DNA of 32,000 nucleotides, from assembly GCF_017876815.1 (NCBI RefSeq), contig NZ_JAGIOS010000003.1, positions 90,001-122,000 of the forward strand, in the 5' to 3' direction. The position numbers and the translations under genes were made by a program. Below are positions 3,122 through 20,877 of this stretch, piece after piece. The stretch is from Sinorhizobium meliloti (GTDB lineage: Bacteria > Pseudomonadota > Alphaproteobacteria > Rhizobiales > Rhizobiaceae). Each line of letters opens with the position of its first letter. The first letter of the stretch is position 1. The notes below the pieces were generated by a model. It had not been told where the DNA came from. It made no database searches and was given only the letters and a program-made list of their open reading frames with translations.

Positions 3122-3235
3122 CGTCTGCCGCGGGCTTGCCGGCCTTGCCTGCGCGCGAGCTTGGCCAGCCTTACGACTTGCCGCTCGCAAATGCTTCACG
3201 GCGGGCCGTTCCGTTCATCCATTCTGGGGGCATCC

Positions 3236-4074: not shown

Positions 4075-4524
4075 ATGAGCCTGACGCGACGTCATATGCT
4101 GACCAGCACAATAGGAACAGTGGCATGTGCGGTTGCCCTGCTGACGCCGAAGCATACCCGGGGGACGGATGAGGTTGAGGACTTTCTCTTCCGTATAACT
4201 GGGCGGAAGGCAACCCCCTCGAATCGGCTTCGCCTCGTGATGCCGGCGGAATTCTCGACCGGGTATACGGTGCCCATGAGCATCTCGGTAGATAGTCCGA
4301 TGACCGAGGCCGACCACGTCAAATCCGTCCGTGTATTCGCTCCGAAGAACCCGCTCGTCGAAGTGGCACAGTTCCATTTCGTCCCGGGGCGCAGCCTCCC
4401 CCGCGTCTCGACGCGCGTCCGGCTTGCTGCCCCGCAACATGTGGTGGCACTCGCTGAGATGAGCAACGGTAACCTGCTGACGGCGAAGGCCTGGGTGGCT
4501 GTCGCCACCAATGGCTGTCTCTGA
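4075..4524 (+). CDS. soxY: SoxY-like sulfur carrier protein (Tat signal, C-terminal cysteine arm)
   Basis: Twin-arginine signal MSLTRRHMLTS. Immunoglobulin-like body with the SoxY-type segment VKSVRVFAPKNPLVEVAQFHF. A Cys is second from the C-terminus (..VATNGCL). SD GGAGA lies 7 nt before the ATG. Directly followed by soxZ. Confidence 0.8.
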   Translation: MSLTRRHMLTSTIGTVACAVALLTPKHTRGTDEVEDFLFRITGRKATPSNRLRLVMPAEFSTGYTVPMSISVDSPMTEADHVKSVRVFAPKNPLVEVAQFHFVPGRSLPRVSTRVRLAAPQHVVALAEMSNGNLLTAKAWVAVATNGCL

Positions 4525-4545
4525 AAGTTACGCAAGGAGGTAGGC

Positions 4546-4872
4546 GTGACCACTCCCATACCGCGTGTGATGGTTCCGGGCTCGGCGACAAAAAACGAAG
4601 TGTTCACGGTCAAGGCCATCATCCAGCACCAGATGGAGACGGGGCTGCGCACCGATTCCACGGGCAAGACGATCCCGCGGAAGATCATCAATCAGTTCGT
4701 CTGCCGTTACGGCGGAGTCGAGGTCTTCCGTACCGATCTGCACGAAGCCGTCTCGGCCAATCCGTTCCTTGAGTTCCAGTTGCTCGCGACGGGAAACGGT
4801 CTTCTTGAGTTCTCCTGGCGGGAGGACGGCGGCGCGACCTATTCGCTGTATCACGACATAGTGGTCACCTGA
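4546..4872 (+). CDS. soxZ: SoxZ sulfur carrier complex subunit
   Basis: 108 aa. VKAIIQHQMETGLRTDSTGKTIPRKIINQF and AVSANPFLEF match the conserved SoxZ core. GTG start preceded by AGGAGG at 5 nt. Confidence 0.85.
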   Translation: MTTPIPRVMVPGSATKNEVFTVKAIIQHQMETGLRTDSTGKTIPRKIINQFVCRYGGVEVFRTDLHEAVSANPFLEFQLLATGNGLLEFSWREDGGATYSLYHDIVVT

Positions 4873-4873
4873 C

Positions 4874-5245
4874 ATGAAGCGGGAACGGGCGGCCGCGACC
4901 GTCTCGCGTGCGAAGGGCCTCGCAGCCGAAATCCGGTGGTTGCTCGGTATTTCGCTTTGCGCGATCCTCCTGTTTCCCGAAAGGTCCGCTCCTGCGGAAG
5001 TGAGCCAAGGCGCGCAGATCGCCGCGACCTGCGCGTCCTGTCACGACCCGACTGGCGGCGGGCTGGCCATCCCGCCGATTGCGGCATTGGACGAACGGGC
5101 TATCGTGAAAGCCATGCTCGCCTTTCGTGCAAGTGAAAGCCCCAGCCATGTGATGCATGCGGTCGCATTGTCGCTCAGTGACGACGAGCTGGCCGCGACA
5201 GCGCGCTATCTCGCTGACAGAGCCAAAGCCGGGAGGCAGCCGTGA
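4874..5245 (+). CDS. Monohaem c-type cytochrome, FccA/SoxE-like small subunit of sulfide dehydrogenase
   Basis: One CxxCH (CASCH) after a signal-like hydrophobic segment. Class-I cytochrome c layout. Starts 1 nt after the soxZ stop and overlaps the next gene by GTGA, so translationally coupled to the flavoprotein. Confidence 0.75.
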   Translation: MKRERAAATVSRAKGLAAEIRWLLGISLCAILLFPERSAPAEVSQGAQIAATCASCHDPTGGGLAIPPIAALDERAIVKAMLAFRASESPSHVMHAVALSLSDDELAATARYLADRAKAGRQP

Positions 5246-6516
5246 CGGATTGGACGCGTCGCCAGATCGGCGCCCTGGCCGGAGGAGCGCTGCTGGCGGT
5301 GGCTGCACCACACACTGTTCGCGGTCAGGGACGGGCTAAGGTTGTAGTGATCGGCGGCGGCATCGGCGGCGCAACGGTTGCCCGATACCTCGGCGACATG
5401 AAGTCAATTGACGTCACACTGATCGAACCGAACTCCACCCACGTCACCTGCTTCTTCAGCAGCCACTACCTTGCCGGTCTTCGCTCGCTCGCCTCCCTGA
5501 CTTTCGGCCTGGAGACGCTGGCCGAAGGCCACGACATAACGATCATCCGCGACAGCGCCGTGGCGATCGACCCCGCCGGAAGGGCTGTCGAGCTTCGCGG
5601 CGGCACAAAGCTCTCCTATGACCGCCTCGTCGTCGCCCCGGGGATCGCCTTCAAGTTCGGCGAGATCGAGGGCTATGATGAGGACGCGGCAAAGATCATG
5701 CCGCATGCCTGGATTGCCGGACCCCAGAGTGAACTGCTGCGCCGGCAGCTCGAAAGCATGGACGACGGCGGTGTGTTCGTTATCGCTGCGCCTCCAAACC
5801 CGTTCCGCTGCCCGCCAGCCCCATATGAGCGGGCCTCGCTGGTCGCTTACTATTTCAAACAGTTCAAACCGAAATCGAAGATACTCATTCTCGACGCGAA
5901 GGATCAGTTTTCGGGTCAGGAACTGTTCCAGGATGCGTGGTCGCGTCACTATCCGGGCATAATTGAATGGCTACCTTCTCAGTTCACCGGGGCCATCAAA
6001 GCCGTAAATGTCGCGGCGCGATCGGTGGTCACAGAAGGCGAGACGTTCAGGGCGGCAGTCGCCAATATTATTCCTGCCCAGAAGGCGGGCCTCATCGGCG
6101 AGAAGGCAGGTCTTACGGACGCATCCGGCTGGTGCCCGGTCGATCCAGTGACGTTCGAGTCGACGTTGCAGCCCGGCATCCATGTCGTAGGCGACTCAAT
6201 TATCGGCGGCGACATGCCGAAGTCTGCCTTTTCTGCCAACAGCCAGGCCAAAGCATGCGCTTTTGGCATTGCGGCTTCCCTCACGGGTTCGCCTCAGTTT
6301 CCGCCGCACCTGTTCAACTCGTGCTACACGTTTCTAGCGCCCGACGACGCTTTCACCAATGCCCTTACCTTCGCACCCGAGGGCGGAAGGATAAAAACCG
6401 TGAAAATGTTCATCAGCAAGGTGGGCGAGAGCGCTGAGGTCCGCCGCCGCACCGCCCTTCACGCCGTGGGCTGGTATTCCGCCTTCACTGCAGACGTGTT
6501 CGGCGGTGGCCCCTGA
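5242..6516 (+). CDS. fccB: Flavocytochrome c sulfide dehydrogenase flavoprotein subunit (FccB/SoxF family)
   Basis: Tat signal TRRQIGALAGG. FAD fold KVVVIGGGIGGATVARYL. Family-typical FRCPPAPYERASLVAYYFK and PKSAFSANSQAKACA. Confidence 0.85.
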   Translation: MTDWTRRQIGALAGGALLAVAAPHTVRGQGRAKVVVIGGGIGGATVARYLGDMKSIDVTLIEPNSTHVTCFFSSHYLAGLRSLASLTFGLETLAEGHDITIIRDSAVAIDPAGRAVELRGGTKLSYDRLVVAPGIAFKFGEIEGYDEDAAKIMPHAWIAGPQSELLRRQLESMDDGGVFVIAAPPNPFRCPPAPYERASLVAYYFKQFKPKSKILILDAKDQFSGQELFQDAWSRHYPGIIEWLPSQFTGAIKAVNVAARSVVTEGETFRAAVANIIPAQKAGLIGEKAGLTDASGWCPVDPVTFESTLQPGIHVVGDSIIGGDMPKSAFSANSQAKACAFGIAASLTGSPQFPPHLFNSCYTFLAPDDAFTNALTFAPEGGRIKTVKMFISKVGESAEVRRRTALHAVGWYSAFTADVFGGGP

Positions 6517-6519
6517 TGG

Positions 6520-6767
6520 AATGCCTGGGGCTGCCGTTGGCCGCCGGGAGGATCGGCTGCGGGAATAGCACTGCGGCGGCAACCGACGAGATTGGAGCGG
6601 AACGCCAGAGGAGATTGGTGAGGATCGTCCGGCGAACCGCGCGGGCCACGTCGACGTCCAAGGCAACATCCAAACCCGCTGTCGGTAAGACGAGTGCGGT
6701 CTCTGCTAAAACATGCCGCCCCCTGCCAGTGCCAGTTCGGGTTCACGCAAGGATCGCCGTCGCCGCT
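6520..6767 (-). pseudogene. Relic of the 3' end of a ccoI/fixI-like P1B-type ATPase paralogue
   Basis: Minus-strand translation ..VDVARAVRRTILTNLLW..QPILPAA parallels the intact CcoI C-terminus ..VDVARAVRRTILANLMW..QPILAAA (20.5-20.7 kb). My hand DNA alignment of rc(6601-6670) against 20541-20612 gives 54/66 identical positions with one 1-nt gap. Weaker resemblance continues upstream over the GSATDLARETAGLVL and GDG regions. No start codon and broken frames. The relic is cut off by the fccB 3' end. Confidence 0.6.
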
Positions 6768-6787
6768 CAATCGAGACAGCGGCCGTA

Positions 6788-7258
6788 CTAGTACTTGCCC
6801 GGCTGCAGCACTGAACCGCTGTTGGACCAGGTAATGTATGCTTCGAGCGCCTTCATTGCCTCGGATTCGGGATCGATCTTCGCCCCTTGGTTCGGCTTCT
6901 CGATGCACCAGTTGATCATGTCGCGGAGGGTCGCGAACTTGGCCATCTGCGCCTGGAACTTCGGGAAGGATTGCGGGTGGGTGTCCGATGCCATCGGATG
7001 ACACATCGCGCAAGCCATGCCGGTTTTCGAGAGGTCGTCGGCAACGCCCATCGCTTCGGCCGTTGCGGCGTCGCCATGAAAGAGGAGGTCTCCTTTTCTT
7101 ACCTCCTCCATGAATGCTTCCTGGTAGAGCTTCAATTGCTCCGGCTTTACCGGATCTTTATGGGCGCTGCTCGGCCCCGCGAAAACGGCGGCAATGGCAA
7201 TTCCCCCCACCAGGCTGAAGCGCCGCAGTGAACAGCGGATTTTCGAGTGGGTTGTCAT
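6788..7258 (-). CDS. Secreted monohaem c-type cytochrome
   Basis: Start moved to the ATG at 7258 (MTTHSKIR..), preceded by GGAGGAAGG. The 224-aa track ORF would overlap the upstream gene. Signal peptide ..IAAVFAGPSSA. Single CAMCH haem site. C-terminal WCIEKPNQGAKIDPESEAMKALEAYI. Confidence 0.8.
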   Translation of the reverse strand: MTTHSKIRCSLRRFSLVGGIAIAAVFAGPSSAHKDPVKPEQLKLYQEAFMEEVRKGDLLFHGDAATAEAMGVADDLSKTGMACAMCHPMASDTHPQSFPKFQAQMAKFATLRDMINWCIEKPNQGAKIDPESEAMKALEAYITWSNSGSVLQPGKY

Positions 7259-7271
7259 GACCCTTCCTCCG

Positions 7272-8408: not shown

Positions 8409-8519
8409 GACGGTTCTCCTCCCAGGAGGCCCGAAAGAAAAACTCGGCCCCACAGAGGCAGACATGGTGCGTAGGCCACGTCAGTTCTTTTCTTGTTTTT
8501 GTTGCGTAACTTTATCACA

Positions 8520-9239
8520 CTACTTTTTCTTAAGCTCGATATCGAGCGTCGTGGCTTTTCCGCCTTCAACGCTGACGGACATTTCCGTTGGCCCGATGAA
8601 GGGCTGCACCGCAACGAGTTTATACTGTCCGGGAGGAACATCCGTTATCGAGTACTTTCCGTCGGGCCCGGTCACCGCGTAGTAGGGATTATCCACGACG
8701 AAAATCCATCCCTCCATCCAACCATGCGCGTCGCAGTCGATGCGCACTGTACCCGTCCGGGGTAATTCGACCGGTATGCGCTGCCCCTTGTTTGGAAGGG
8801 CCAGGTTAAAGGCGGTACGCTTGCCGTAATAGCCGTGCGTGTTATGAAGCACCGGGTCCGAGTTGACGACGTCGAGCGGTCCTGCGGCGATCACCTGCAC
8901 CTGAGGTTCAAAACGGCATTTCTCGTTGTCGAGTTCAGGGGTCTTGCCAGGCGTCGGCCATTCTTTTCCGGATGCCACCTCGACAAGATAAATGACCGCA
9001 CTCTCGACCGCTTGATTGGCACCCACGCGGATCAGCGGCTCATCCCGCGGCTCTCCGCAAACCTCAACATCTTTGGTCGGGATGATCTTCTTCATCGGGA
9101 CATTGTCACGAAAGACGACGGTGCCCTCGATGGACCCGCCTCCGGTGACAGCGCTTACCTCATAGGAAAGCGCAGGGGGCGCGGTCATGATAACTGCAGC
9201 AGTAATCAGAAACTCAGAGAAGAAGCGGTGCTTTACCAC
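8520..9239 (-). CDS. Secreted cupredoxin-like protein with carboxypeptidase-regulatory-like beta-sandwich domain
   Basis: GTG at 9239 follows GGGAGG at 6 nt. Signal-like N-terminus ..AAVIMTAPPALS. Candidate type-1 copper ligands: H in SDPVLHNTHG plus CDAHGWM (C-x2-H-x2-M, amicyanin-like spacing). C-terminal YYAVTGPDGKYSITDVPPGQYKLVAV is typical of CarboxypepD_reg domains. The rest of the 483-aa track ORF is antisense to sco. Confidence 0.7.
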   Translation of the reverse strand: MVKHRFFSEFLITAAVIMTAPPALSYEVSAVTGGGSIEGTVVFRDNVPMKKIIPTKDVEVCGEPRDEPLIRVGANQAVESAVIYLVEVASGKEWPTPGKTPELDNEKCRFEPQVQVIAAGPLDVVNSDPVLHNTHGYYGKRTAFNLALPNKGQRIPVELPRTGTVRIDCDAHGWMEGWIFVVDNPYYAVTGPDGKYSITDVPPGQYKLVAVQPFIGPTEMSVSVEGGKATTLDIELKKK

Positions 9240-9257
9240 AGCGAACCTCCCTTCCCT

Positions 9258-9283
9258 TGAAGGAAACGTTGTATTTTCCTTCA
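9258..9283. promoter_or_regulatory. Inverted repeat TGAAGGAAA-N8-TTTCCTTCA in the divergent cupredoxin/sco intergenic region
   Basis: Perfect 9-bp arms read directly from the sequence, 19 nt upstream of the cupredoxin GTG, inside an AT-rich 243-bp divergent promoter region. Could be an operator or a 5'-UTR hairpin. No known consensus recognised. Confidence 0.25.
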
Positions 9284-9482
9284 GAATGATTCTAATATCA
9301 AGGTCAAATCGCGATATCGGTAGGCTGGGCGGCAAGTTTGGAGACACGCCAGTGGGAAGCATCCGACCGCACCCTTTCCCTCGTATCCATTCCAAGGCTG
9401 AGACCAGCCCTCCGACGTCGCAAGACATCGGTTTGTAGCTCGCGCACAGCGACAATGTCGGCTCGCGGTAAGGAGGCACGAC

Positions 9483-10091
9483 ATGGAGGGGCGGAACGAT
9501 CCGCATCGGGCTGCGACTTTCCACCGGGCGTTTTTTTATGGCCTCGTTTGCGCTGCGGTATTCGTCACCATGCCGGCTTTCGCTGCTTCGCCGGCGACTG
9601 TTGGTGGCCCATTCAATCTCATCGCACCCGATGGGGCCGTGGTGACCGATGCGAGGTTTCGCGGTAAATGGATGCTGGTCTTCTTCGGCTACACCTATTG
9701 TCCCGATCTCTGTCCGACGACGCTGAGCGAGATCGCTATCGCACTCGACAGGCTTGGCCCCGAGGCGGCGAAGGTGCAGCCGATCTTCATCACCGTCGAT
9801 CCCGAACGTGATACGCCTGAGGTAATGGGGCAATATACTGGCGCCATCGACCGGCGAATCTTGGGATTGACTGGCGATAAGCAGCAGATCGCCGCGGTGT
9901 CGCACAAATACGGCGCTTATAGCGAACGCCATCCACCGGATCCGGGCACCGGCGACTATGTCGTCGATCATAGTACTTACATCTACATCATGAATCCCAG
10001 CGGCAAGTTCGTTCGCGGCCTGCAGGCCGGCACGCCCGGTGATGCTATGGCCGACGCGCTGCGGCGTCTGATGCGGCAGAACGGCGAGTGA
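9483..10091 (+). CDS. SCO1/SenC family copper chaperone (thioredoxin fold)
   Basis: AAGGAGG lies 6 nt before the ATG. N-terminal membrane anchor. Copper-binding CPDLCP in [25 protein letters not shown]. Distal His in [17 protein letters not shown]. Confidence 0.9.
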
Positions 10092-11386
10092 TGGCCACGC
10101 TGACGGTGCGTGCGGATACGGGGAAGGCCATGCCTGAACATTTGTCGCATTCCAAAAGGTTCGGGACGGCGCAATATGATCACTTCTTCGCCGACGCTAT
10201 GGCGCAAATCCATGCCGAGCAGCGCTATCGTGTGTTCGCAGACCTCGAACGGATGGCCGGCGATTTTCCCCGCGCACTCTGGCATGGACCGAGCGGGTCG
10301 CAGGAAGTTATCATTTGGTGTTCGAACGACTATCTGGGCATGGGGCAGCACCCCAGCGTGATCGCCGCCATGACTGAAGCCGCGAAGCGTCTGGGAACAG
10401 GCGCGGGGGGCACGCGCAATATATCCGGAACCACTCATCCGCTGCTCGAGTTGGAGATCGAACTCGCGGATCTTCATCACAAGGAAGCGGCGCTGGTTTT
10501 CACCTCAGGATATGTCTCAAACCAGACAGGCATCTCCACGATTGCAAAGCTGGTCCCCGATTGTGTCATCCTCTCGGATGCGCTCAACCATAATTCGATG
10601 ATCGAGGGTATTCGGCAGTCGGGCTGCGAAAAGCGGATCTTCCGTCACAATGATCACCGCCACCTCGAGGAATTGCTGAGGACGGTGGGGCGGGGGCGGC
10701 CGAAATTGATCGTATTCGAAAGCCTCTATTCGATGGATGGCGATATCGCTCCGATTCGCCGCATCTGCGATCTTGCCAAATATTACGGGGCCATGACTTA
10801 CCTCGATGAGGTCCATGCCGTCGGCATGTACGGCCCGCGCGGTGGCGGCATCGCTGAACGAGACCGTGTCATGCACCGGATCGATGTTATCGAAGGAACG
10901 CTTGCCAAGGCCTTCGGCTGCCTTGGTGGCTACATAGCGGGAACCGTCACCCTCATCGATGCGGTTCGCTCCTACGCGCCGGGGTTCATATTCACCACGG
11001 CTTTACCGCCACCAATTTGTGCCGCGGCCACCGCCGCGATCCGCCATCTGAAGGTGTCTCACTCTGAGCGATGCGCTCATCAGGACCGCGTTCAGCGGGT
11101 AAAGGCAGAGCTAAACGGGGCGAGGCTGCCGGTCATGGCCAGTGGCAGTCACATTGTTCCCCTGCGCGTCGGCGATCCCGCGAAGTGCAAGGCAGCGAGC
11201 GATATGCTGCTCGAGGCTCATCGTATCTACATCCAGCCGATCAACTATCCTACCGTGGCGAGGGGAACCGAGCGGCTGCGCATCACGCCCTCTCCGTGCC
11301 ACGACGACATCATGATCAGTCAACTCGTGGCCGCGCTCAGCGAGGTCTGGGATGAACTCGGGCTGCCACGCGGAAGTGCCGCCTAG
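10091..11386 (+). CDS. hemA: 5-aminolevulinate synthase (ALAS, C4 haem pathway)
   Basis: [51 protein letters not shown] and the PLP-lysine motif EGTLAKAFG. The ATG at 10091 overlaps the sco stop (TGATG). Alternative starts are GTG 10088 and ATG 10130. Canonical ALAS would align from about QYDHFF. Confidence 0.9.
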
Positions 11387-11502
11387 CGGCGGAAATAAGA
11401 GACACCGCGTGAGCCTTAAAACAACGACTGCGTCAATTGCAAAGCGTTATTGCGTCCTTTGGTCATCCGCTCAGATGCGCGACGCAAAATAGGGAGGGAG
11501 AT

Positions 11503-13143
11503 ATGACGGCCAAGGAGATCAGGCTCGCTTTCCGGGCGCGCGATAGCATGCTGCATGGGATCGAGACGCTTGCACGCGCCGTCGCTGTCACGCTTGGCCC
11601 CCGGGGTCGAAACGTCGCCATCAACCGCTCCTTCGGCACAAAAATAACTAAGGACGGCGTGACGGTAGCAAGAGAAATCGAACTCGAGGACAAGTTCGAG
11701 GACATGGGCGTTCAGTTGCTCAGGCAGGTCGCCATCAAAACCTCGTATCAGGCGGGCGACGGAACGACCACCGCGGTGGTCCTCGCCGACGCAATTCTCA
11801 GGGGCGGTGTCCGAGCGGTCACTGCTGGCATGAACCCGATGGACCTGAAGCGCGGGGTTGATCGTGCCGTCGAGGCAGTCGTCGCGGAGTTGAAACAAAA
11901 TGCTAGATCTGTCGCTTCAAATGTCGAGATCGCGCAGGTCGCCACGATTTCGGCCAACGGAGATCGGGAGATCGGCCAGATCATCGCCGATGCGATGGCG
12001 GAGGTCGGCAAAAACGGCGTGATCATGATCGAGGAAGGGAGATCGCTCGAAACTGAAAGCGAAGTCATCACCGGGATCCAGTTCGACCGCAGCTACATCT
12101 CTCCCTATTTCGTCACCAACCGAGACAAAATGCGGGTGGAAATGGAAGAGGCACTCATTCTCGTTTGCGAGACGAAGCTGTCGAGCCTTAGCCAAATTTT
12201 GCCGCTTCTGGAAAAGGTCGTAGAGGCTGACAAGCCGCTTCTCATCATCGCCGAGGACTTCGAGGCTGAAGTCAGGGCGGCGCTTGTTGTCAACAGGCTC
12301 CGTGGCGGCCTCAAAGTGGCTGCTGTCAAGGCGCCGGCCTATGGCGAGCTCCGCAAGGCGATCCTGCAAGACATAGCACTGCTCACCGGCGGAACGGTTA
12401 TCTCGGAGGAGCTAGGTCTTAAGCTCGAGAGCATATCGCTCGACCGCCTCGGACGGGCCCGGAAGGTTAGAGTCGACAAACAAAATACCACGATCGCGGA
12501 AGGAGGCGGGTCAAGCGTGGAAATCGCTGGGCGGATCGCTGCGATCGGGGCGCAGCTCGAGCTAACTACGTCCGACTTTGATCGGGAAAAACTTCAGGAG
12601 CGGCTGGCACGGCTCTCCGCCGGGATTGCTGTGATCCGCGTCGGCGGCGCGACCGAGTCGGCGGTCAGGGAGAAGAAGGACCGCATCCGCAACGCCATGC
12701 ACGCCACCCGTGCCGCCGTAGAGGAGGGCATCCTGCCGGGCGGTGGGGTCGCGCTGCTGCGCGCAAGCAAGGCGATCCGGACTTTGAAGGTCGGGAACCT
12801 CGACCAGCAGGCCGGCATCAATATCGTCAAGGAAGCCGTAATGTGGCCGGCGAAGCAGATTGCGTCCAATGCGGGCGAGGAGGGCTCGGTCGTGGCCGCT
12901 AGAATTCTCCAAAACGATGACTACGGCTGGGGTTACGATGCGCAGGCTGGAACCTTTCGCGATCTTTTGGCGGCAGGTATTGTCGATCCCGCCAAAGTCG
13001 TGCGCACGGCGCTCCAAGGTGCCGCCTCCGTGGCCGGCCTCATGATCATGACGGAAGCGATGTTAGCCGAGGTGCCCGGCCCGCCGCCGCCTGAGCTTCC
13101 CGGCCATCATGACCATGAGGATAATCTCGACATTGATTTCTAG
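11503..13143 (+). CDS. groEL: Chaperonin GroEL (Cpn60), divergent copy with no adjacent groES
   Basis: ATG at 11503 preceded by [58 protein letters not shown] and [11 protein letters not shown] are all present. The C-terminus is ..[22 protein letters not shown] rather than a GGM repeat. Confidence 0.9.
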
Positions 13144-13511
13144 CTCATCCCGCCGGTTCAGAGTGGTAGAGCTCTTCCGTGACAAATAGGAGGCGAGAGA
13201 CGTTCTCGGCGCCCGCCATGGAGTAAGCTCGATGGCTAAACCGGTCCAGTCTGCAGTCCTCTCGCGACGCGCCCTGCAACGGCGCGACATTTCCAACCAG
13301 ACGATGGCTGCTAGATGTAGCTGTACTCGACCGGCCGTGGCAGAGAAGCTGGATGCGGTGGCGGATGATCGGGATCATCTCGCGGCGACAGCCCTAGAGG
13401 GGCCAATGGGCGACGCCGCTATGCGCAGCAATATCGGCCGCATCACCGGTTATCGGCGGTCCAAATCGTTATGGCGAAGCGCGATGCGCGCCGATCCCGC
13501 TCGCATCGTTC

Positions 13512-13754
13512 TCACGGCTCGCGTTCAGGAAGGTCGAAGTTGAGCTGCAACATTCGCGCTATGTTTATCAGAATCGTCTCACAGACTTTCTCTTGATTAG
13601 GATCGAGATATTTGACAGTCCAGTTTGCCCCGTTCTCCTTGGTTTCGAGCCGCTGAATCACAAAATCGGTGACGTGCTCGCAGCCCGGTTCCTTATGAAG
13701 ATCCGCGAGGATCAATTCCTTAAGCTCCGAAGCTTCCTTTGTATGTCTTTGCAT
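13512..13754 (-). CDS. Hypothetical small protein (80 aa), AT-richer than its surroundings
   Basis: ATG at 13754 preceded by GGAAGGAGA at 6 nt. Soluble-looking sequence MQRHTKEASELKELILADLHKEPGCEHVTDFVIQRLETKENGANWTVKYLD.. with no family recognised. Confidence 0.45.
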   Translation of the reverse strand: MQRHTKEASELKELILADLHKEPGCEHVTDFVIQRLETKENGANWTVKYLDPNQEKVCETILINIARMLQLNFDLPEREP

Positions 13755-13888
13755 GGCCGCTCTCCTTCCGGATGACAACTTTCGACGCATCGCTCAACTC
13801 CATAGTCGCGATCTACGTCATGGCTAGACATGGTACTGTTTTGGCTTTATTTTTAAAAGTTGCCCCTCGTTCTCATCAGGTGGCTTCT

Positions 13889-14042
13889 ATGACGATGCGC
13901 GAGTTGATGAGCGGGTTACTGGCGCATCGAGAAGTCGAACCAGGGCGAAAAGATCGATCCCGTGATGGAGGCGATGAAGGCGCTCGAGACGTACATCACC
14001 TGATCGAACACCGGCTCGGAGTTGGTGCCACGCAAATACCAG
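13889..14042 (+). pseudogene. Relic of the 3' third of a paralogue of the cytochrome c gene at 6788-7258
   Basis: The relic reads TMRELMSG, then a frameshift, then YWRIEKSNQGEKIDPVMEAMKALETYIT*SNTGSELVPRKY. The intact protein reads TLRDMINWCIEKPNQGAKIDPESEAMKALEAYITWSNSGSVLQPGKY. In-frame TGA at 14001-14003 where the intact gene has TGG. No haem site and no start codon. Confidence 0.65.
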
Positions 14043-14152
14043 CGTAGGGGGCACCGCCTGCAGGGAGCGCGCCGCGAGTCCGCGATCGGGATGCCGGAGG
14101 ATGGGGCTGAAGCAGTCGTGCGGCCGAGGAACCGCGCGGGGAGGTCTATGCG

Positions 14153-15607
14153 TTGGCAGAGACTGGGATGGAGCTGCGCGGCAACTTTGCGAACGTTGAC
14201 CTGGATGCGCTGGTCGACCACCGGGTCGTGCGGACCTGGCTCTATTTCGGCATGTTCTGGCTGATGGTGACGCCATCCGTTGGCGTTTTGATATCGAGCA
14301 CCTTCAACTATCCCGACTATCTCGGCTCGGGGAACCTCGAGCTCACCTTCGGCCGGCTGCGCCCGGTCCACGTCAACGGTGTTATCTTCGGCGCCTTCTC
14401 GACGCTTTTCATAGGCCTTTGCTACTATCTCGTGCCGCGTCTGTCGGGGGTGCGGGTGATATGGTCAGAGTGGTCGGTTCTTCTCGCATGGGTCTGGAAC
14501 ATCGCAACACTTGCCGGTTTGGTCGGCTTGCTGATCGGCGACAGTGACGGTTTGGAAGCCGGAGAGCTTCCGCTATACGCTAAAGTCGCATTCTTCATCG
14601 TGGTGGGTGTTGCTACCGCGCAGTTCCTGATCACGATCAGTCGAAGGCTCGAGCCAGCGATCTATGTCGCGCTGTGGTACCTGATCGCCACTTTCGTGTG
14701 GACGACGATGAACTTCGTGCTTGGAAGCTTCATCCTGCCATACACGATCTCGGGCATCAACAGCGCCGCCTTCCATGGCCTCTATCTCCACTACATCGTT
14801 GGGCTGTGGCTAACGCCCGCAGGCTACGTGATCATCTACTATTTCCTGCCGGTCAGCGCGCGAAATCCGCTCTATGCCCATAAGCTCTCGCTGGTAGGCT
14901 TCTGGTCCCTGGCATTGTTCTACCCGTTCGTCGGCATCCACCATTACCTCTACAGCCCGATCGCCGACTGGGCCGAGACCTTGGCCGTCGTCACGTCGAT
15001 GCTGCTGATCATTCCGGTGTGGACGGTGCTGGTGAACTTCTTCGGCACCATGATGGGCAAGTGGCATGAGTTCGGCAGAAACCTGCCGGCGAAGTTCCTG
15101 ATCATGGGCTCGCTCATGTATCTCGTCGGCTGCTTCCAAGGCTCGACCGAGGCGCTGCGGCAGGTGCAGCAGCCGACCCATTTCACCGATTTCGTCATCT
15201 CGCATTCGCATCTTACCGTATTCGGCACCTTCGTCGTCTGGGCGATGGGGGGCCTCGTCTATACTTGGCCGCGGCTGTTCGGGCGCGAACTCTGGTCATT
15301 CAAGCTCGGCAACTGGTCGTTCTGGCTGATCACAGTCGGCATTGCGACCATGGGCCTGGTTCTCACAGCGGGCGGCCTGCAGCAGGGTTACCAATGGATG
15401 AATGGCGTCGAATGGCTCGACTCCCTCGTCTGGGTGAAGCCCTACTGGCTGGCGCGGACCCTGGCAGGTATCAGCATGGATATCGGCATTTCGCTGCTGG
15501 TGGTGAATCTGATGTTGACTGCGCTGACCAGCCCGGCGGCTGAGGCGCGACGCGTCGGCAGGCCGGAGGGGCCTATCCAGGCCCCGGCGGGAGGGCTCGC
15601 ACGGTGA
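14153..15607 (+). CDS. ccoN: cbb3-type (C-family) haem-copper oxidase subunit I, CcoN/FixN-like, divergent
   Basis: 12-TM protein. FGRLRPVHVNGVIFG (low-spin haem His). AAFHGLYLHY (CuB His). YPFVGIHHYLY has Y-x5-HH, the C-family cross-link Tyr plus two CuB His. ISHSHLTVFG carries the two haem His. TTG at 14153 lies 8 nt after GGGGAGG. Alternative start ATG 14168. Confidence 0.9.
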   Translation: MAETGMELRGNFANVDLDALVDHRVVRTWLYFGMFWLMVTPSVGVLISSTFNYPDYLGSGNLELTFGRLRPVHVNGVIFGAFSTLFIGLCYYLVPRLSGVRVIWSEWSVLLAWVWNIATLAGLVGLLIGDSDGLEAGELPLYAKVAFFIVVGVATAQFLITISRRLEPAIYVALWYLIATFVWTTMNFVLGSFILPYTISGINSAAFHGLYLHYIVGLWLTPAGYVIIYYFLPVSARNPLYAHKLSLVGFWSLALFYPFVGIHHYLYSPIADWAETLAVVTSMLLIIPVWTVLVNFFGTMMGKWHEFGRNLPAKFLIMGSLMYLVGCFQGSTEALRQVQQPTHFTDFVISHSHLTVFGTFVVWAMGGLVYTWPRLFGRELWSFKLGNWSFWLITVGIATMGLVLTAGGLQQGYQWMNGVEWLDSLVWVKPYWLARTLAGISMDIGISLLVVNLMLTALTSPAAEARRVGRPEGPIQAPAGGLAR

Positions 15608-17268
15608 ACGTTCGCTTCTTCGCGCTGTTCGCCGGCGTCTTCTGCATCACCCTTGCGGTGATCACGCAGGGCGTGCTGCCCTTCGTGGAGCCGTCCTCGC
15701 GAACTACGCGCGTGACCTCGGTGGTGCGCACGGATTTCGGCCAGCTGAAATGGATGGTTTCAGAGGCGACGGACTACACCGAGCAGCAGCTTCGCGGCCG
15801 CAATATCTATCTGCGCGAAGGCTGCTGGTACTGCCATTCCCAATTCGTGCGGCCAGTGACCGGCGAGATCCGCCGCTGGGGACCGGTGAGCGAGGCCGGC
15901 GAATACGCCTATGACGTGCCGCACCTGTTTGGCACACGCCGGATCGGACCAGACCTGACGCGCGTCGGCCTGAAATACAGCGACGAATGGCACCTGGCGC
16001 ACTTCTACGATCCGCGGATGCTGGTGCCGGACTCGATAATGGCGCCGTATCGCGGCCTCTTCCACGAGCCCGATGCAGCTGTCCGTATCGTTGACGACGG
16101 CGCTGGCAATCGGACCCTGGAAAGGACAGAGGTCACCGAGGGCATGTTCGACTTCGACAGCCAGCAGGCGATCCAGCTGACGCCGAATGCATCCGGGTTG
16201 CTGTTCGTGCCGCTGAAGGCGCGCGATAGAAAGCCGATCATCCTGACGCCGAACGACGAATACGCAGGCGAAACCGTCAGCATCGCGACGGAAACGGAAT
16301 CGGTGGCGGCGCTCATTTCTTACCTCCAGAAGCTCGGCACGAACCGAGGTAAATGGCGCGATCTTTTCGAGCCGCAAAGCCTGGAGGTCATGGATGCGAC
16401 GATGCCGCGCTCCGAGGAATGGATTGCTTATGGCAAGGAAGTCTATGAGCGCCGCTGCATCGGTTGCCACGGTGCCAAGGGCGACGGCAATGGGCCGGCC
16501 GCCACCTTCATGTATAACCAGCGGCCTAGGGATTTCACGTCCGCAGTCTTCAAGTTCAGGTTGACAAAGGAGCCCCTGCCCACGGACGGCGACATGCTGC
16601 GCACCATTACTCGCGGCATCCGCGGCACGGCAATGCCCCCTTGGTACGACCTGCCGCTCAACGATCGGCTGGCGGTGATCCAGTACATCAAGTATGAGCT
16701 AGCGGTTGACCGTTCCAATCCCGCCAATCCTTACGCTTTCTTCGTCGAGGAACCGCCTGGCCCACCCTTGTATATCGGGCGGCCGCCGATCCCGTCCCAG
16801 ACGATGCTGGACCGTGGCAAGGAGATTTGGCAGGTGGCGAAATGCTGGGAGTGCCATGGCCAAGGCGGCAAGGGAGACGGCGAGAAGGCTGCCGGCCTCA
16901 AGGATGATCTCGGGTTCGTCAGCGTGCCGGCCGACCTCACCAGCGGCCAATTCAAGTCTGGCCCGGCCGTCGAAGACATCTTCCGGACGATAACTACGGG
17001 CCTTAGCGGCACGCCGATGCCGTCCTACCGGAATGCATTTCCGGACGAGGACCGGTGGGCGCTTTCCTATTTCGTGGTAGCGCTTTCCGCCTATAAAGAC
17101 CCGCTCTCGCTGCAGCCGCTCCCGATCGATAAGGAGGCCCGCGCGGCGCTGAACGATCTGGAACTGGTCGCTGACAAGCCTGAGCGAGCGTATGTACCCG
17201 ATCCGTCGGTGCCAGCGTCCGGCCCGCCAGCGCCGCCTGCCGAAGAACAGGCACCCGCCGGAGGTTAG
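15604..17268 (+). CDS. Fused CcoO (monohaem) plus CcoP-like dihaem cytochrome c subunit
   Basis: GTGA overlap with ccoN. The N-terminal anchor plus EGCWYCHSQFVRP, GTRRIGPDLTRVGLKYSDEWHLAHFYDPR, SIMAPY and ALISYLQKLG make a full CcoO. Two further class-I haem domains follow (CIGCHGAKGDGNG and CWECHGQGGKGDG), then a Pro/Ala-rich tail. Three CxxCH in one 554-aa chain. Confidence 0.85.
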   Translation: MNVRFFALFAGVFCITLAVITQGVLPFVEPSSRTTRVTSVVRTDFGQLKWMVSEATDYTEQQLRGRNIYLREGCWYCHSQFVRPVTGEIRRWGPVSEAGEYAYDVPHLFGTRRIGPDLTRVGLKYSDEWHLAHFYDPRMLVPDSIMAPYRGLFHEPDAAVRIVDDGAGNRTLERTEVTEGMFDFDSQQAIQLTPNASGLLFVPLKARDRKPIILTPNDEYAGETVSIATETESVAALISYLQKLGTNRGKWRDLFEPQSLEVMDATMPRSEEWIAYGKEVYERRCIGCHGAKGDGNGPAATFMYNQRPRDFTSAVFKFRLTKEPLPTDGDMLRTITRGIRGTAMPPWYDLPLNDRLAVIQYIKYELAVDRSNPANPYAFFVEEPPGPPLYIGRPPIPSQTMLDRGKEIWQVAKCWECHGQGGKGDGEKAAGLKDDLGFVSVPADLTSGQFKSGPAVEDIFRTITTGLSGTPMPSYRNAFPDEDRWALSYFVVALSAYKDPLSLQPLPIDKEARAALNDLELVADKPERAYVPDPSVPASGPPAPPAEEQAPAGG

Positions 17269-17271
17269 CGC

Positions 17272-17496
17272 ATGCTCGGTTTTGAAGTTACCGGACCCTA
17301 TGTGGGCGCCATGCTGATGAGCCTGGCGGCCCTGTTCTTGTTCATCTGGGGCGTCCTGTCAGGCGCGTTGAGCGGCACCGACAAAGCCGCCAACGGGTTT
17401 TTTGAAAGGGAAATGGAAAATGAGCGATCTGCAGAGCAGCGATCCGGAGAGCCCGAGGCATCCGGAACTGGAGGTGCGTCAAAGCTCGCACCCTGA
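17272..17496 (+). CDS. Small single-TM protein, CcoS/FixS-like (alternatively CcoQ-like)
   Basis: ATG lies 3 nt after the ccoOP stop. One TM helix followed by FIWGVLSGALSGTDKAAN, resembling the CcoS pattern W-x3-SGQ-x-DD..A. Charged tail. The 3' 77 nt overlap the next ORF. Confidence 0.45.
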   Translation: MLGFEVTGPYVGAMLMSLAALFLFIWGVLSGALSGTDKAANGFFEREMENERSAEQRSGEPEASGTGGASKLAP

Positions 17497-17644
17497 ACTG
17501 GAGGACTATGCCGGCGGCCTGATACAGGCGCGTGTGGGGTTCATTCCGCTATGGCTTCTCGTCGTCTACATGCTGCTGTTCGGCTGGGGCCTGTATTACA
17601 TGTATGTCTATTGGGGCGGGCTCGGCCCCGGCCGTCTGTTCTAG
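17420..17644 (+). CDS. Small membrane protein resembling the detached N-terminal anchor domain of CcoP (FixP_N-like)
   Basis: ATG at 17420. The acidic N-terminus contains HPELE twice. EDYAGGLIQARVGFIPLWLLVVYMLLFGWGLYYMYVYW resembles the DGI..P.P.WW..F..T.....Y pattern of FixP N-terminal domains. No haem site. Confidence 0.45.
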   Translation: MSDLQSSDPESPRHPELEVRQSSHPELEDYAGGLIQARVGFIPLWLLVVYMLLFGWGLYYMYVYWGGLGPGRLF

Positions 17645-17677
17645 AAGACTGTCGCAAGGACCGTTAAGGCAGGAGTG

Positions 17678-17782
17678 ATGGAGATGTTGGTAGCCAAAAT
17701 TCTCCTTGGGGTCGCCGCATTGAACCTCCTTTTCCTGGCCTTCGAGGTGGCGATAAACGTGCTTCGTCTTTATTTCGGCTGA
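17678..17782 (+). CDS. Unannotated 34-aa single-TM mini-ORF
   Basis: AGGAG lies 2 nt before the ATG (an alternative ATG is two codons in). MEMLVAKILLGVAALNLLFLAFEVAINVLRLYFG. Below the ORF-track cutoff. Fits exactly into the gap in the operon. Confidence 0.3.
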   Translation: MEMLVAKILLGVAALNLLFLAFEVAINVLRLYFG

Positions 17783-17796
17783 CATAGGAGCAGCGG

Positions 17797-17919
17797 ATGC
17801 TACAGGACACCGTCTTCAAGCTCGCTGACGCCGGCTTGCCGCAGATGCTTGGGTTCCTCATCTATGGCGGCTGCACCGTCGGCTTTATCATCTATCTTTT
17901 CTATCTTGTGCGGCAATAG
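17797..17919 (+). CDS. Unannotated 40-aa single-TM mini-ORF (CcoQ/FixQ-like layout)
   Basis: TAGGAG lies 6 nt before the ATG. MLQDTVFKLADAGLPQMLGFLIYGGCTVGFIIYLFYLVRQ. A short polar N-terminus followed by one TM helix, as in FixQ. Confidence 0.35.
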   Translation: MLQDTVFKLADAGLPQMLGFLIYGGCTVGFIIYLFYLVRQ

Positions 17920-17938
17920 CGGCGCAGCGAAAACGCCA

Positions 17939-18667
17939 ATGTTCTACTACCTCGTGATCTTCGCCGCTGGATTTGCAGGCAGCTTTCATTGCATCGGCAT
18001 GTGCGGCGGCTTTGCCTGCGCGTTGGGCCGCGATCAGCGAGGCGGAGGCGCAACCCTCCTTCGCCACCTGCTCTATAATACCGGCCGATTGACAACCTAT
18101 TGCTTTCTGGGCGGGCTCGCCGGTGCGGTCGGTCAGGTCATCTGCACCACGCAAGGTGTAGCGGCGGCGCCGCTCTTTAACGGCTCCCTCGACATCGCCC
18201 AACGAATTCTCGCGATCGTCGCTGGCCTGCTCATGATTGCCATGGCGTTGCAGTTCTTCGGCTTGTTGCAGGTCTTTCATCGCCTTGCGATCGGATTTGG
18301 CGGCAGCACATTTGCTTTGTCCCTGCGCAGTCTGGTGACGGCCCGGAGTAGCGCCGCGCCGCTCGCCTTTGGCGTTTTCAACGGCTTCCTGCCATGTCCC
18401 CTGGTTTATGCCTTCGCCGCCCAGGCGGCGAGCACCGCCGGAGCGCTTCCCGGGTTCCTCGTCATGGCTTGGTTCGGATTGGGAACCTTCCCCGCGATGC
18501 TGATGATGGGCGGCGTTGGCCGGATACTCGGGCCAGCCGGGCGGCGGCGCGGCGTGCGGCTGGCTGGTGGCTTTATTCTTTTTCTCGGTCTCATCACGCT
18601 CGGCCGTGGTCTCCTGCCTTCTCACGCGCATATCGGCCTTGCCTGGCTGGGCGGACATTCCACATGA
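17939..18667 (+). CDS. DsbD_2 / TauE-SafE-like multi-pass membrane protein with paired-cysteine motifs
   Basis: Start set to ATG 17939 (MFYYLVIFAAGFAGSFHCIGMCGGF). HCxxMCGG motif in TM1 and FLPCPLVY in a later TM. About 6 TM helices. Its stop overlaps the ccoI start (ATGA). Confidence 0.75.
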   Translation: MFYYLVIFAAGFAGSFHCIGMCGGFACALGRDQRGGGATLLRHLLYNTGRLTTYCFLGGLAGAVGQVICTTQGVAAAPLFNGSLDIAQRILAIVAGLLMIAMALQFFGLLQVFHRLAIGFGGSTFALSLRSLVTARSSAAPLAFGVFNGFLPCPLVYAFAAQAASTAGALPGFLVMAWFGLGTFPAMLMMGGVGRILGPAGRRRGVRLAGGFILFLGLITLGRGLLPSHAHIGLAWLGGHST

Positions 18668-20877
18668 CTGCGCATGATCATATCCTCTGTAGCCATTGTT
18701 CGCTGCCCGTTGGCGTGCGCCCAATGGAGCGCAGGCTCGACGGTGAGGCTTGCACGTTCTGCTGCTACGGCTGTTGCATCGCCTTTCAGGTGAAGAGCGG
18801 CAGACACGAAGAATGGGAAGCCGCCTGGCTTCTGATCCAGCTTGGCGTGGGTGGCTTTCTCTCCATGAACATCATGATGTTCAGCCTCCTCCTCTATTCG
18901 GACGCATTCACCGGGGTCGATGCGGGCGTGCTGCCGTGGATTCACTTTTTGCTCTGGATCTTCGCGACGCCGGCGGTGGTGCTTCTCGGCGGACCCTATC
19001 TGCGCGAAATGTGGCTCAATGGCATGCAGGGACGAGTGACATCGTCGGCACTCATCGTGCTTGGCGTCGCTGCCGCTTACCTCTACTCGGCGTTTGCCGT
19101 GTTCGAGGGCAGCACGCATGTCTATTTCGACACCGCCGTGATGGTGCTGATGCTATTTACCGTTGGCCGCTATCTCGAGGCTGTTGGCCGCGCAAGGGCG
19201 GCGCGCGACCTCGAACCTCTTCTGGCCGCAGAAAGCGAGAGCGCGACCGTGGTCGATGGCGCGGCAGAGATCCGCGGTCCGGTGCGGGAGGTGTCGGCCG
19301 GCATGCTGGTGCGGGTTCGGCCAGGCGAGCGCATTCCGGTCGACGGCGTGGTTGTCGAGGGGGAATCGAACACCGATGAAGCCGTGATTACCGGAGAAAG
19401 CCGGCAAGTGACAAAGGGCGCCGGCTCCAAGGTGATTGCCGGCAGCATCAATATCGACGGCCCGCTTCTGATCCAAAGCAGCGCTGACGGAACCGCAACC
19501 CGCTGGGCGAGGATTTGCCGGTCGGTGCGCGAAGCGCTCGGCCGTCGCAGCCCAACCCAGCGCCTTGCCGATCGCGTCGTCGGCGTGTCCGTGCCGCTCG
19601 TCCTTGCCCTCGGCGGTCTGACGATCGTTTACTGGGCGCAGTCATTGCCGTTCGATCGGGCGTTGCTAATTGGCCTCTCGGTACTGGTGGTTGCCTGTCC
19701 TTGTGCCGTCGGCCTCGCTGCTCCGATGGCGACATCACTCGGCATCGGCCGGCTGGCGCGGCACGGCTGCCTCGTCCGCGATCCCGGCGTACTCGAGACC
19801 CTCGCACGTGTACGGTTACTCGCCTTCGACAAGACCGGCACTCTGACGGCGGGCAAAGCACGTCTAGTCGGCGTCTACGGCGAGGAGGTCGGCTTTGACC
19901 AAGTGCTGGCGCGCGCCGCCGGTCTGGAGCGCCTTTCCGAGCATGGTCTGGCGCAGGCCATCACGGCAGCCGCCGCTCAGCGGGACATCACGCCGCTCGT
20001 CACCAGCGATGTTCGGACGGTTCCCGGCCGTGGCATCCGCGGCAGCGCCGAAGGCCGGCCCGTGGCGGCAGGGAACGGCAGATTGATGAATGATCTGGGC
20101 TGGCCGCTTCCCCCGTCGCTGGCCGAGCGTGCGCGGTCGTTGGAGGCGAGCGGTCATTCGGTGGTCTATGTGGGTTGGGGCGAGCGGGTTCACGCCGTGC
20201 TGTCGCTCGACGACTCACCGCTTCCCGAGGCGCAGGCCGCGATCGCGGCGCTGCGCAAGCGCGGGCTCGACGCCACGCTGTTGACCGGCGACCTGGCGCA
20301 AGCGGCGGAGCGGATCGCGGCCTTGGTTGGGATCAAGGACGTCCAAGCCGGCCTTTCGCCGGAGGCCAAACGGCTGGCGCTGGATCGGCTCCGCCATGAC
20401 CACGTTTCGGTGGCGATGGTCGGCGATGGGCTGAATGACGGACCGGTCCTGGCCGCCGCAGATATCGGTATCGCCGTCGGCTCCGCCACAGATCTCGCCC
20501 GCGAGACTGCAGGGCTCGTGCTGCCTGCGGATGGATTTTGGATGCTGCCCTGGATCGTCGACGTGGCCCGCGCGGTCCGCAGGACCATCTTGGCCAACCT
20601 TATGTGGGCGTTCGGCTACAACCTCGTCGCGCTGACGTTCGCAGCATTCGGACTTCTGCAGCCAATCCTTGCGGCGGCGGTCATGGCCGGCTCGAGCATC
20701 CTCGTTGTGGTGAATTCGCTGCGGCTGGAGCGGCTGCCCGATCCTGTTCCAGCGCTCATGCCGGCGCAACGATCCGACATCAATGTGGAGCGCACACACA
20801 ACGTAAGCGGCATTTCCGCGATGGCCGGGCCGGCCGTCGGGCATGACCTTGCCACCCGTGGTCCGCTCGATCCTTAA
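18664..20877 (+). CDS. ccoI: Copper-translocating P1B-type ATPase, CcoI/FixI-like
   Basis: Start at ATG 18664 (MTAHDHILCSHCSLP..CTFCCYGCCIAF), giving the Cys-rich CcoI-type N-terminal metal-binding domain with no HMA domain. TGES, CPC in TM6, DKTGTLT, GDGLNDGP. N-x6-YN and M-x2-SS-x5-N form the Cu(I) signature. SEHGL replaces the usual SEHPL. Confidence 0.9.
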   Translation: MTAHDHILCSHCSLPVGVRPMERRLDGEACTFCCYGCCIAFQVKSGRHEEWEAAWLLIQLGVGGFLSMNIMMFSLLLYSDAFTGVDAGVLPWIHFLLWIFATPAVVLLGGPYLREMWLNGMQGRVTSSALIVLGVAAAYLYSAFAVFEGSTHVYFDTAVMVLMLFTVGRYLEAVGRARAARDLEPLLAAESESATVVDGAAEIRGPVREVSAGMLVRVRPGERIPVDGVVVEGESNTDEAVITGESRQVTKGAGSKVIAGSINIDGPLLIQSSADGTATRWARICRSVREALGRRSPTQRLADRVVGVSVPLVLALGGLTIVYWAQSLPFDRALLIGLSVLVVACPCAVGLAAPMATSLGIGRLARHGCLVRDPGVLETLARVRLLAFDKTGTLTAGKARLVGVYGEEVGFDQVLARAAGLERLSEHGLAQAITAAAAQRDITPLVTSDVRTVPGRGIRGSAEGRPVAAGNGRLMNDLGWPLPPSLAERARSLEASGHSVVYVGWGERVHAVLSLDDSPLPEAQAAIAALRKRGLDATLLTGDLAQAAERIAALVGIKDVQAGLSPEAKRLALDRLRHDHVSVAMVGDGLNDGPVLAAADIGIAVGSATDLARETAGLVLPADGFWMLPWIVDVARAVRRTILANLMWAFGYNLVALTFAAFGLLQPILAAAVMAGSSILVVVNSLRLERLPDPVPALMPAQRSDINVERTHNVSGISAMAGPAVGHDLATRGPLDP

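Follow-up and report, generated by a model that had tools for sequence, protein, structure and literature searches.

Within a window of 32,000 nt from a Sinorhizobium meliloti megaplasmid (contig NZ_JAGIOS010000003.1, positions 90,001 to 122,000; the window is the whole stretch of DNA that was analysed), the genes of a cbb3-like oxidase, ccoN to ccoI, are encoded on one strand, and three genes that precede ccoN in other genomes are encoded on the opposite strand. Short gene relics lie in front of ccoN and beyond the three separated genes. The window is 100% identical to the megaplasmids of S. meliloti RU11/001 and SM11, and the record of strain ml28 names the replicon pSymA. For the gene map, Pfam and NCBIfam were combined with the PGAP annotation available for a plasmid of 99.9% identity. 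The three separated genes are called A, B and C here and relics carry a prime. In line with the interpretation reached below, S. fredii-type parts of the locus are termed resident and Mesorhizobium-type parts acquired. The features central to this interpretation are the following.

6517..6699, minus strand: I' relic, a decayed 3' fragment of ccoI of the resident S. fredii type (gapped alignment, approximate ends)
6696..6787, minus strand: resident spacer between C and ccoN with its ribosome-binding site, and N', 14 nt from the start of the resident ccoN (blastn against S. fredii)
6788-7258, minus strand: gene C, cytochrome c with a SoxA/TsdA domain, 156 aa (Pfam)
7272-8408/8465, minus strand: gene B, metallophosphoesterase with a Tat-like signal (Pfam)
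8520-9239, minus strand: gene A, putative cupredoxin with a CarboxypepD_reg domain (Pfam, residue conservation)
13889..13915, plus strand: A' relic, the first nine codons (MTMRELMSG) of a Mesorhizobium-type cupredoxin-like gene A
13918..14042, plus strand: C' relic, the 3'-terminal 125 nt of a SoxA/TsdA-domain cytochrome c gene of Mesorhizobium type (nucleotide homology)
14043..20877, plus strand: acquired oxidase block, beginning with the spacer between C and ccoN (Pfam, NCBIfam, neighbour-joining tree)

Comparing the window with itself recovers two inverted repeats. The longer one pairs the 3' end of gene C (6788-6912) with 13918-14042 at 77% identity over 125 nt without gaps. The blastn match of the relic to the gene at 6788-7258 has E = 3.6e-21, hence the repeat is not due to chance, and matches to intact cytochrome c genes range from that value to 8.5e-42 over 125 nt. 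The shorter repeat (6605-6663 against 20549-20607, 59 nt, 78%) covers the most conserved motif of the ATPase encoded by ccoI. The first-pass annotation of this DNA had described a cytochrome c relic of about 150 bp upstream of ccoN with one internal frameshift. The relic is real, but its cytochrome-derived part is confined to the 125 nt at 13918-14042. What had been taken for a frameshift is a deletion junction, at which the start of gene A (13889-13917) meets the tail of the cytochrome c gene. Positions 13889-13915 read ATGACGATGCGCGAGTTGATGAGCGGG, and gene A of Mesorhizobium starts with ATGACCATTCGCGAATTGATGAGCGGG (protein MTIRELMSG). A' is joined out of frame to C' by the deletion, with the junction sequence GGGTTACTGGCG and a CTGG[C/T]G microhomology at 13916-13924 that is found in both A and C. 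The 52-codon open reading frame (ORF) formed by the fusion (13889-14047) is not conserved. C' translates as WRIEKSNQGEKIDPVMEAMKALETYIT, a stop and SNTGSELVPRKYQ, and the intact cytochrome c of the window ends with NWCIEKPNQGAKIDPESEAMKALEAYITWSNSGSVLQPGKY followed by its stop. Both lesions reported earlier, an in-frame TGA at 14001-14003 and CAG in stop position at 14040-14042, are seen in the sequence. Compared with other Sinorhizobium/Ensifer relics, the TGA and the TAG-to-CAG change occur in S. meliloti only. The relic lacks the 5' two-thirds of the cytochrome c gene and, with it, the haem site.

Six further loci, in S. americanum, S. psoraleae and four Ensifer/Sinorhizobium strains, share this A'/C' junction. 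Each of them has indels of its own, including 4-nt and 12-nt deletions. A common junction combined with species-own indels indicates a single event followed by independent neutral decay. C' differs from the Mesorhizobium gene by 11-12%, which is comparable to the divergence at third codon positions of the adjacent ccoN (86-89% identical) and suggests neutral drift for roughly the whole time of the block in Sinorhizobium. The syntenic position of the relic is kept, as it is colinear with the order C, spacer and ccoN of Mesorhizobium and S. fredii. Judged by their sequences, A' and C' are pseudogene fragments that have no function of their own and decay neutrally.

The relics have their closest relatives in other lineages. 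Over all 125 nt, C' is 88-88.8% identical to intact Mesorhizobium genes, compared to 76.8% for the window's own gene C and 76% for C of S. fredii. Among other Ensifer strains, C' relics that have decayed less agree with the Mesorhizobium consensus at 95-96% identity. The gene at 6788-7258, from which the relic was thought to be copied, is thus only a homologue, and an origin of C' as an intragenomic duplicate of that gene was rejected on these identities. The companion ccoI relic noticed in the first-pass annotation is confirmed, and gapped alignment extends the 59-nt repeat to about 6517-6699. For I', identity is 80.7-83.5% with S. fredii ccoI but 67.8-75.4% with the ccoI of the window itself. 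In S. americanum, where this relic is better preserved, the corresponding values are 82.7% and 64.8%. In S. meliloti, I' carries an extra 83-nt internal deletion and still adjoins the gene for the flavocytochrome c sulfide dehydrogenase flavoprotein (FCSD), matching the ancestral layout. Because the relics are closest to two different lineages, they are not reciprocal copies of this genome's own genes.

The ancestral layout is preserved on a plasmid of Phyllobacterium zundukense. There, SCO, hemA and groEL are transcribed away from A, B and C, which are followed on their own strand by ccoN, a fused ccoO/P, a small ORF, TauE and ccoI. The genes soxY, soxZ, cytochrome c and FCSD converge on ccoI from the other side. 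The same order is found in S. fredii, about ten Mesorhizobium species, Rhizobium, Bradyrhizobium and Methyloceanibacter. Among the loci recovered through ccoN, 39 encode A-B-C directly upstream of ccoN on the same strand, which is the contiguous operon predicted in the first-pass annotation and the usual arrangement. These include S. fredii, Mesorhizobium, Phyllobacterium, Rhizobium, Bradyrhizobium, Thiocapsa, SAR324, Rokubacteria and Burkholderiales. A-B-C is divergent in two of the other loci, and 11 contain only A. That the three secreted proteins go with the oxidase was proposed earlier from the relics. Their association is strongly conserved across loci, and this conserved synteny outweighs the relics as genomic evidence tying A, B and C to the oxidase. 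Variant arrangements occur as well. The metallophosphoesterase and the SoxA-like cytochrome are absent upstream of ccoN in loci L027-L029, L031, L033, L034 and L040 (mostly gammaproteobacterial metagenome-assembled genomes). In these loci, gene A is instead found beside a protein similar to the C-terminal, dihaem half of CcoO/P. The oxidase block of Phyllobacterium (L001, 8969-15703) is a mosaic relative to S. meliloti and Mesorhizobium, with 87.6% nucleotide identity in TauE-ccoI and 73.6% in ccoN-ccoO/P.

In S. meliloti, different parts of this layout have different relatives. The CcoN, CcoO/P, TauE and CcoI proteins are 93-97% identical to Mesorhizobium and 66-80% to S. fredii. The A, B, C, SCO, HemA, GroEL and FCSD proteins are 59-88% identical to Mesorhizobium and 71-97% to S. 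fredii (for A, B and C, 71-87% and 84-97%, respectively). In neighbour-joining trees, S. fredii and Rhizobium are the neighbors of A+B+C and of HemA+GroEL+FCSD, and Mesorhizobium is that of the oxidase block. At third codon positions, S. meliloti is 88-95% identical to M. temperatum in acquired genes versus 42-59% in resident genes, a contrast that excludes vertical descent and ancient paralogy. The displaced resident copy left a remnant at the ancestral position, the N'/I' relic by FCSD, which is closest to S. fredii ccoI. The oxidase block is accompanied by donor-type context in donor order, namely a small ORF (13512-13790), the intergenic region between SCO and A, A' and C'. As Sinorhizobium carries Mesorhizobium-specific context fragments and the Mesorhizobium operon is intact, transfer from a Mesorhizobium-like donor to Sinorhizobium is indicated. 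We conclude, with a probability of about 0.85, that the resident oxidase genes were lost and that a Mesorhizobium-type copy of the locus was gained by horizontal transfer, which resulted in a chimeric, split locus.

Reference loci from both lineages delimit what each copy has lost. On the resident side, blastn of the window against S. fredii (locus L004) aligns window 4055-6536 with 2937-5417, 6539-6699 with 5505-5674 and 6696-13141 with 12005-18472. Positions 5675-12004 of S. fredii, about 6.3 kb that begin at base 15 of ccoN and end within the 3' part of ccoI, are missing in S. meliloti. The N'/I' junction lies on an ACCGC microhomology, is clearly common to S. meliloti and Sinorhizobium 8-89, and is more eroded in other strains. 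The start codon of the resident ccoN remnant has changed from TTG to TTA. On the acquired side, blastn against the donor-type reference (M. temperatum, locus L008) yields four aligned segments.

Window 13428-13468 = L008 6172-6212: spacer upstream of donor hemA, 88% nucleotide identity
Window 13475-13821 = L008 6312-6658: small ORF between hemA and SCO in Mesorhizobium, 92.8%
Window 13820-13924 = L008 7377-7482: intergenic region between SCO and A with the first codons of A, 77%
Window 13918-20842 = L008 9755-16705: 3' end of C through ccoI, 94.5%

Missing from the acquired copy are SCO (L008 6659-7376), deleted at about 13821 of the window, and a segment that begins at codon 10 of A and ends near codon 115 of C (L008 7483-9754). 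We suggest that an ancestor of several Sinorhizobium species carried an S. fredii-like form of the locus and gained a second, Mesorhizobium-type copy, which lies inverted immediately downstream of the resident groEL. Deletions at three places probably followed the acquisition, and probably took place in Sinorhizobium rather than prior to integration. The resident copy lost about 6.3 kb, starting at codon 5 of ccoN and reaching into 3' ccoI, so that the N'/I' relic remains by FCSD. The acquired copy lost its SCO gene and, in the last of the three deletions listed here, about 2.3 kb between codon 10 of A and roughly codon 115 of C, so that the A'/C' relic remains. Microhomology of a few bases is present at two of the three deletion junctions. 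The last deletion spared 70 nt of the donor SCO/A intergenic region with the proximal promoter region, which probably drives ccoN now. The former single operon is thus split into two units on opposite strands, resident A-B-C and foreign ccoN-ccoI. The resident A-B-C, SCO, hemA, groEL and sox genes must work with a foreign oxidase and its copper-delivery genes.

Other histories might have produced a similar locus. The first-pass annotation favored a duplication within this genome, in which one operon became two paralogous copies that then suffered complementary deletions. Complementary deletions of two locus copies hold up, as each gene is left exactly once in the window, and such a history would account for two partial copies with exactly complementary gene content as well as for a contiguous ancestor known elsewhere. 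Yet the pairs within this genome are the more distant ones (C'-C 76.8%, I'-I 68-75%), and each relic is better matched by a different foreign lineage (88-89% and 83.5%). Given also a nucleotide identity of 94.5% between the acquired block and Mesorhizobium, next to resident genes at 72-77%, and the incongruent trees, duplication in this genome is very improbable. Dating the event by the divergence between relic and intact gene, as proposed earlier, is meaningless and would mislead, because the second copy is a horizontally acquired version of the locus. Hidden paralogy, i.e., an old duplication in the ancestor of Rhizobiaceae and Phyllobacteriaceae followed by differential loss without horizontal transfer, is the least credible history. 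It would explain the existence of two distinct operon types, but third-position identities of 88-95% in the oxidase genes, next to genes at 42-59%, are far too high for family-level divergence, and no genome with both types is found in PLSDB or among the species-representative loci. Transfer of the ccoN-ccoI block in reverse, from Sinorhizobium to Mesorhizobium, would be compatible with the reciprocal sister clades formed by Mesorhizobium and the Sinorhizobium with the derived layout, a tree that alone gives no direction. Such a direction is highly unlikely, however, as Mesorhizobium-specific relics are found in Sinorhizobium (the small ORF, the region between SCO and A, A' and C') and the contiguous operon is intact in Mesorhizobium. 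In addition, it is to Phyllobacterium and an Aestuariivirgaceae genome, rather than to Rhizobiaceae, that the block is next related.

Several observations weigh against the gain of a second copy followed by deletions. No genome with both copies intact was found in 72,556 PLSDB plasmid records or the 74 loci recovered through ccoN. When the SCO-A-B-C segment of Mesorhizobium was compared with PLSDB by megablast, it matched only resident-type genes at about 80% identity, though absence from the sampled records does not exclude the existence of such a genome. Homology ends at window 20842. A comparison of the DNA right of ccoI and downstream of groEL in S. meliloti, S. americanum, four Ensifer and two S. 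fredii strains shows a right flank that differs in each species, so the insertion is not bracketed on both sides. Third-position divergence is a mosaic across Sinorhizobium with the common layout (window 4075-20877 compared to loci L003, L005, L006, L010, L014 and L067). The acquired block and sox-FCSD are 85-91% identical, versus 57-81% for the central genes A, SCO, B, C and groEL, which implies that parts of the locus were further exchanged between Sinorhizobium lineages. The trees are neighbour-joining trees without bootstrap support. Gain followed by purging is also unproven relative to loss followed by re-acquisition, and third-codon-position clocks gave no order. The resident ccoN-ccoI genes might have been deleted first and rescued later by a Mesorhizobium-type copy, possibly already trimmed, that spread among Sinorhizobium. 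This order of events is a serious though minority possibility. It is favored by the lower identity among I' relics of different species (70-83%) than among C' relics (87-90%), and by the later coalescence of the acquired block than of the central resident genes. However, the I' alignments are short and rich in indels, and sox-FCSD beside I' is as young as the acquired block, so that recombination explains the pattern equally well. An interval without the oxidase would moreover have left A-B-C partnerless, yet purifying selection kept these genes (the B protein is 96-99% identical). Gain of the Mesorhizobium-type copy before loss of the resident oxidase genes is the more probable order.

The remaining features of the resident and acquired parts are listed below.

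4075..6516, plus strand: resident soxY, soxZ, c-type cytochrome and FCSD (Pfam, synteny)
9483-10091, plus strand: resident SCO, divergent from A-B-C (Pfam/NCBIfam)
10130-11386, plus strand: resident hemA, divergent from A-B-C (Pfam/NCBIfam)
11503-13143, plus strand: resident groEL, divergent from A-B-C (Pfam/NCBIfam)
13428..13821, minus strand: left end of the acquired DNA, with the donor hemA-upstream spacer and the small conserved ORF 13512-13790 (blastn)
13820..13888, plus strand: retained Mesorhizobium-type SCO/A intergenic region (blastn to L008 7377-7482)
14153/14168-15607, plus strand: ccoN, acquired block
15604-17268, plus strand: fused ccoO-ccoP, acquired block, encoding a 554-aa protein with CcoO and two cytochrome c domains
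17402-17644, plus strand: small membrane ORF, acquired block
17939-18667, plus strand: TauE/DsbD_2 protein, acquired block
18724-20877, plus strand: ccoI, copper P-type ATPase, acquired block, with Mesorhizobium homology up to 20842

A promoter scan of the retained intergenic region found a sigma-70-like TAGACA-17-TATTTT site at 13825-13853, the TAGACA hexamer of which is kept in Mesorhizobium and Phyllobacterium. This predicted promoter probably now drives ccoN via a leader of roughly 300 nt that contains the relic. The ribosome-binding site of ccoN is a GGAGG at 14140. A sigma-54-like reading of TGGTAC-N5-TTGGC was dropped, as the motif is not conserved in Phyllobacterium. The resident and acquired SCO/A intergenic regions contain no common promoter motif, and the two lineage types are unrelated in sequence there. 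To the left, tblastx and blastn (word size 7) searches of 13144-13427 for relics of donor hemA or groEL gave no match outside S. meliloti and S. americanum. Homologues of the roughly 245 nt between groEL and the acquired DNA (13184-13427), which overlap a spurious-looking ORF (13232-13543), are likewise found only in these two species. Two small ORFs that are conserved along with the oxidase block have no Pfam or NCBIfam match. The one at 13512-13790 (minus strand) is 92-98% identical to Mesorhizobium in amino acids. The one at 17402-17644 (plus strand) encodes a C-terminal hydrophobic segment and is located between ccoO/P and TauE in nearly all loci. Both might be unrecognized accessory subunits.

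The locus is disrupted by insertion sequences in some strains. In ml28 (L002, CP140933), ISRm2011-2 (3323-4269) is inserted in the resident spacer between C and ccoN, between window 6699 and 6788. In ml66 (L079, CP140942), an IS21 element (5064-7273) takes the place of the region from the 5' part of the metallophosphoesterase gene through TauE. These insertions indicate that the locus is dispensable or decaying in some S. meliloti strains. Elsewhere in the window, AcrB and TetR genes are found. A PALP-family threonine/serine dehydratase gene (21494-22493, minus strand) is frameshifted after about 180 codons and hence a pseudogene in the window strain. An intact 325-aa dehydratase gene is annotated at the matching position in pSymA of ml66.

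The encoded proteins provide some indication of function. Protein A has invariant residues H132/H135, C169, H172 and M175 (C-x2-H-x2-M) in 25 homologues. Its AlphaFold model is of medium confidence, with a pLDDT of 69.7 that is lower in the cupredoxin-like domain. Foldseek retrieves the NirK cupredoxin domain, plastocyanin, amicyanin and pseudoazurin with probability 1.0 but E-values of only 3e-4 to 3e-2, and a phmmer match to amicyanin is weak (E = 0.11). The metallophosphoesterase B has a Tat-like twin-arginine motif, RRTFIHG, in its N-terminal region. Protein C, with a single CxxCH haem site, is a match to the SoxA/TsdA cytochrome domain. The score of CcoN, 227.6 bits, is far below the TIGR00780 equivalog cut-off of 583.15, and no NCBIfam or Pfam match to CcoQ, CcoG, CcoH or CcoS was found among the products scanned. 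The low CcoN score, the fusion of CcoO and CcoP and the lack of a CcoQ match point to a divergent C-family oxidase rather than a canonical cbb3 oxidase. Tentatively, gene content suggests an uncharacterized, self-contained sulfur-oxidizing respiratory module of SoxYZ, FCSD, A, B, C and the oxidase with its own copper, haem and folding supply, although this possibility is doubtful. SoxYZ may then act as the carrier, C as a SoxA/TsdA-like monohaem cytochrome, B as a Tat-exported, SoxB-like hydrolase and A as a cupredoxin electron carrier. SCO and the P-type ATPase may provide copper, hemA haem and groEL folding. If so, the periplasmic A-B-C module and the membrane oxidase would be exchangeable between lineages in which the oxidase proteins differ by 20-34%. 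The two would interact loosely by electron transfer and not as a co-evolved complex.

The relics are molecular fossils that allow the replacement to be reconstructed almost base by base, including the donor lineage, three junctions, a retained predicted promoter and neutral decay. They also correct a tempting inference, namely that similar fragments in one genome reflect duplication. The conserved and apparently uncharacterized locus is a more interesting lead than the relics. The cupredoxin-like protein, the metallophosphoesterase and the SoxA-like cytochrome form one conserved unit with an unusual cbb3-like oxidase and soxYZ-FCSD. The whole unit spans Alpha-, Beta- and Gammaproteobacteria and beyond. 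No published description of the locus or of the rearrangement was found in the literature. A study of rhizobial Cu-ATPases mentions the fixNOQP-fixGHIS clusters and does not treat the locus (PMC5552934). Resident partners working with a foreign oxidase constitute a natural experiment in a genetically tractable rhizobium.

The event is a new example of a known process, i.e., xenologous gene displacement creating a mosaic operon, with complementary loss before or after. Xenologous displacement and mosaic operons were reportedly described by Koonin, Makarova and Aravind in 2001 and by Omelchenko and colleagues in 2003 (Genome Biol 4:R55). As in such cases, part of a conserved operon was exchanged for the version of another lineage, and the chimera is recognized by incongruence between neighboring genes. 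Here, though, the incoming copy did not replace the resident genes in situ but is located about 7 kb away in inverted orientation, which split the operon. It is rare that both copies, displaced and displacing, leave datable relics together with readable junctions, as they did here. Reciprocal gene loss after whole-genome duplication has been described in yeasts and likewise starts from two redundant gene sets of which each gene is kept once. In S. meliloti, the redundancy stems from the transfer of a 25-30% divergent copy rather than from duplication, and contiguous blocks were removed by three deletions instead of gene-by-gene decay. Canonical cbb3 oxidases are encoded by the fixNOQP-fixGHIS clusters of S. 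meliloti and Bradyrhizobium. The locus shares with these clusters a C-family haem-copper subunit I, a FixO-type subunit II, c-type cytochrome domains and a dedicated copper P-type ATPase. It differs from them by the fusion of ccoO and ccoP, a CcoN far below the TIGR00780 cut-off, a TauE/DsbD_2 protein instead of CcoQ, CcoG, CcoH and CcoS, which no product scanned matched, and its constant linkage to a cupredoxin-like protein, a metallophosphoesterase, a SoxA-like cytochrome, SCO, hemA, groEL and soxYZ-FCSD.

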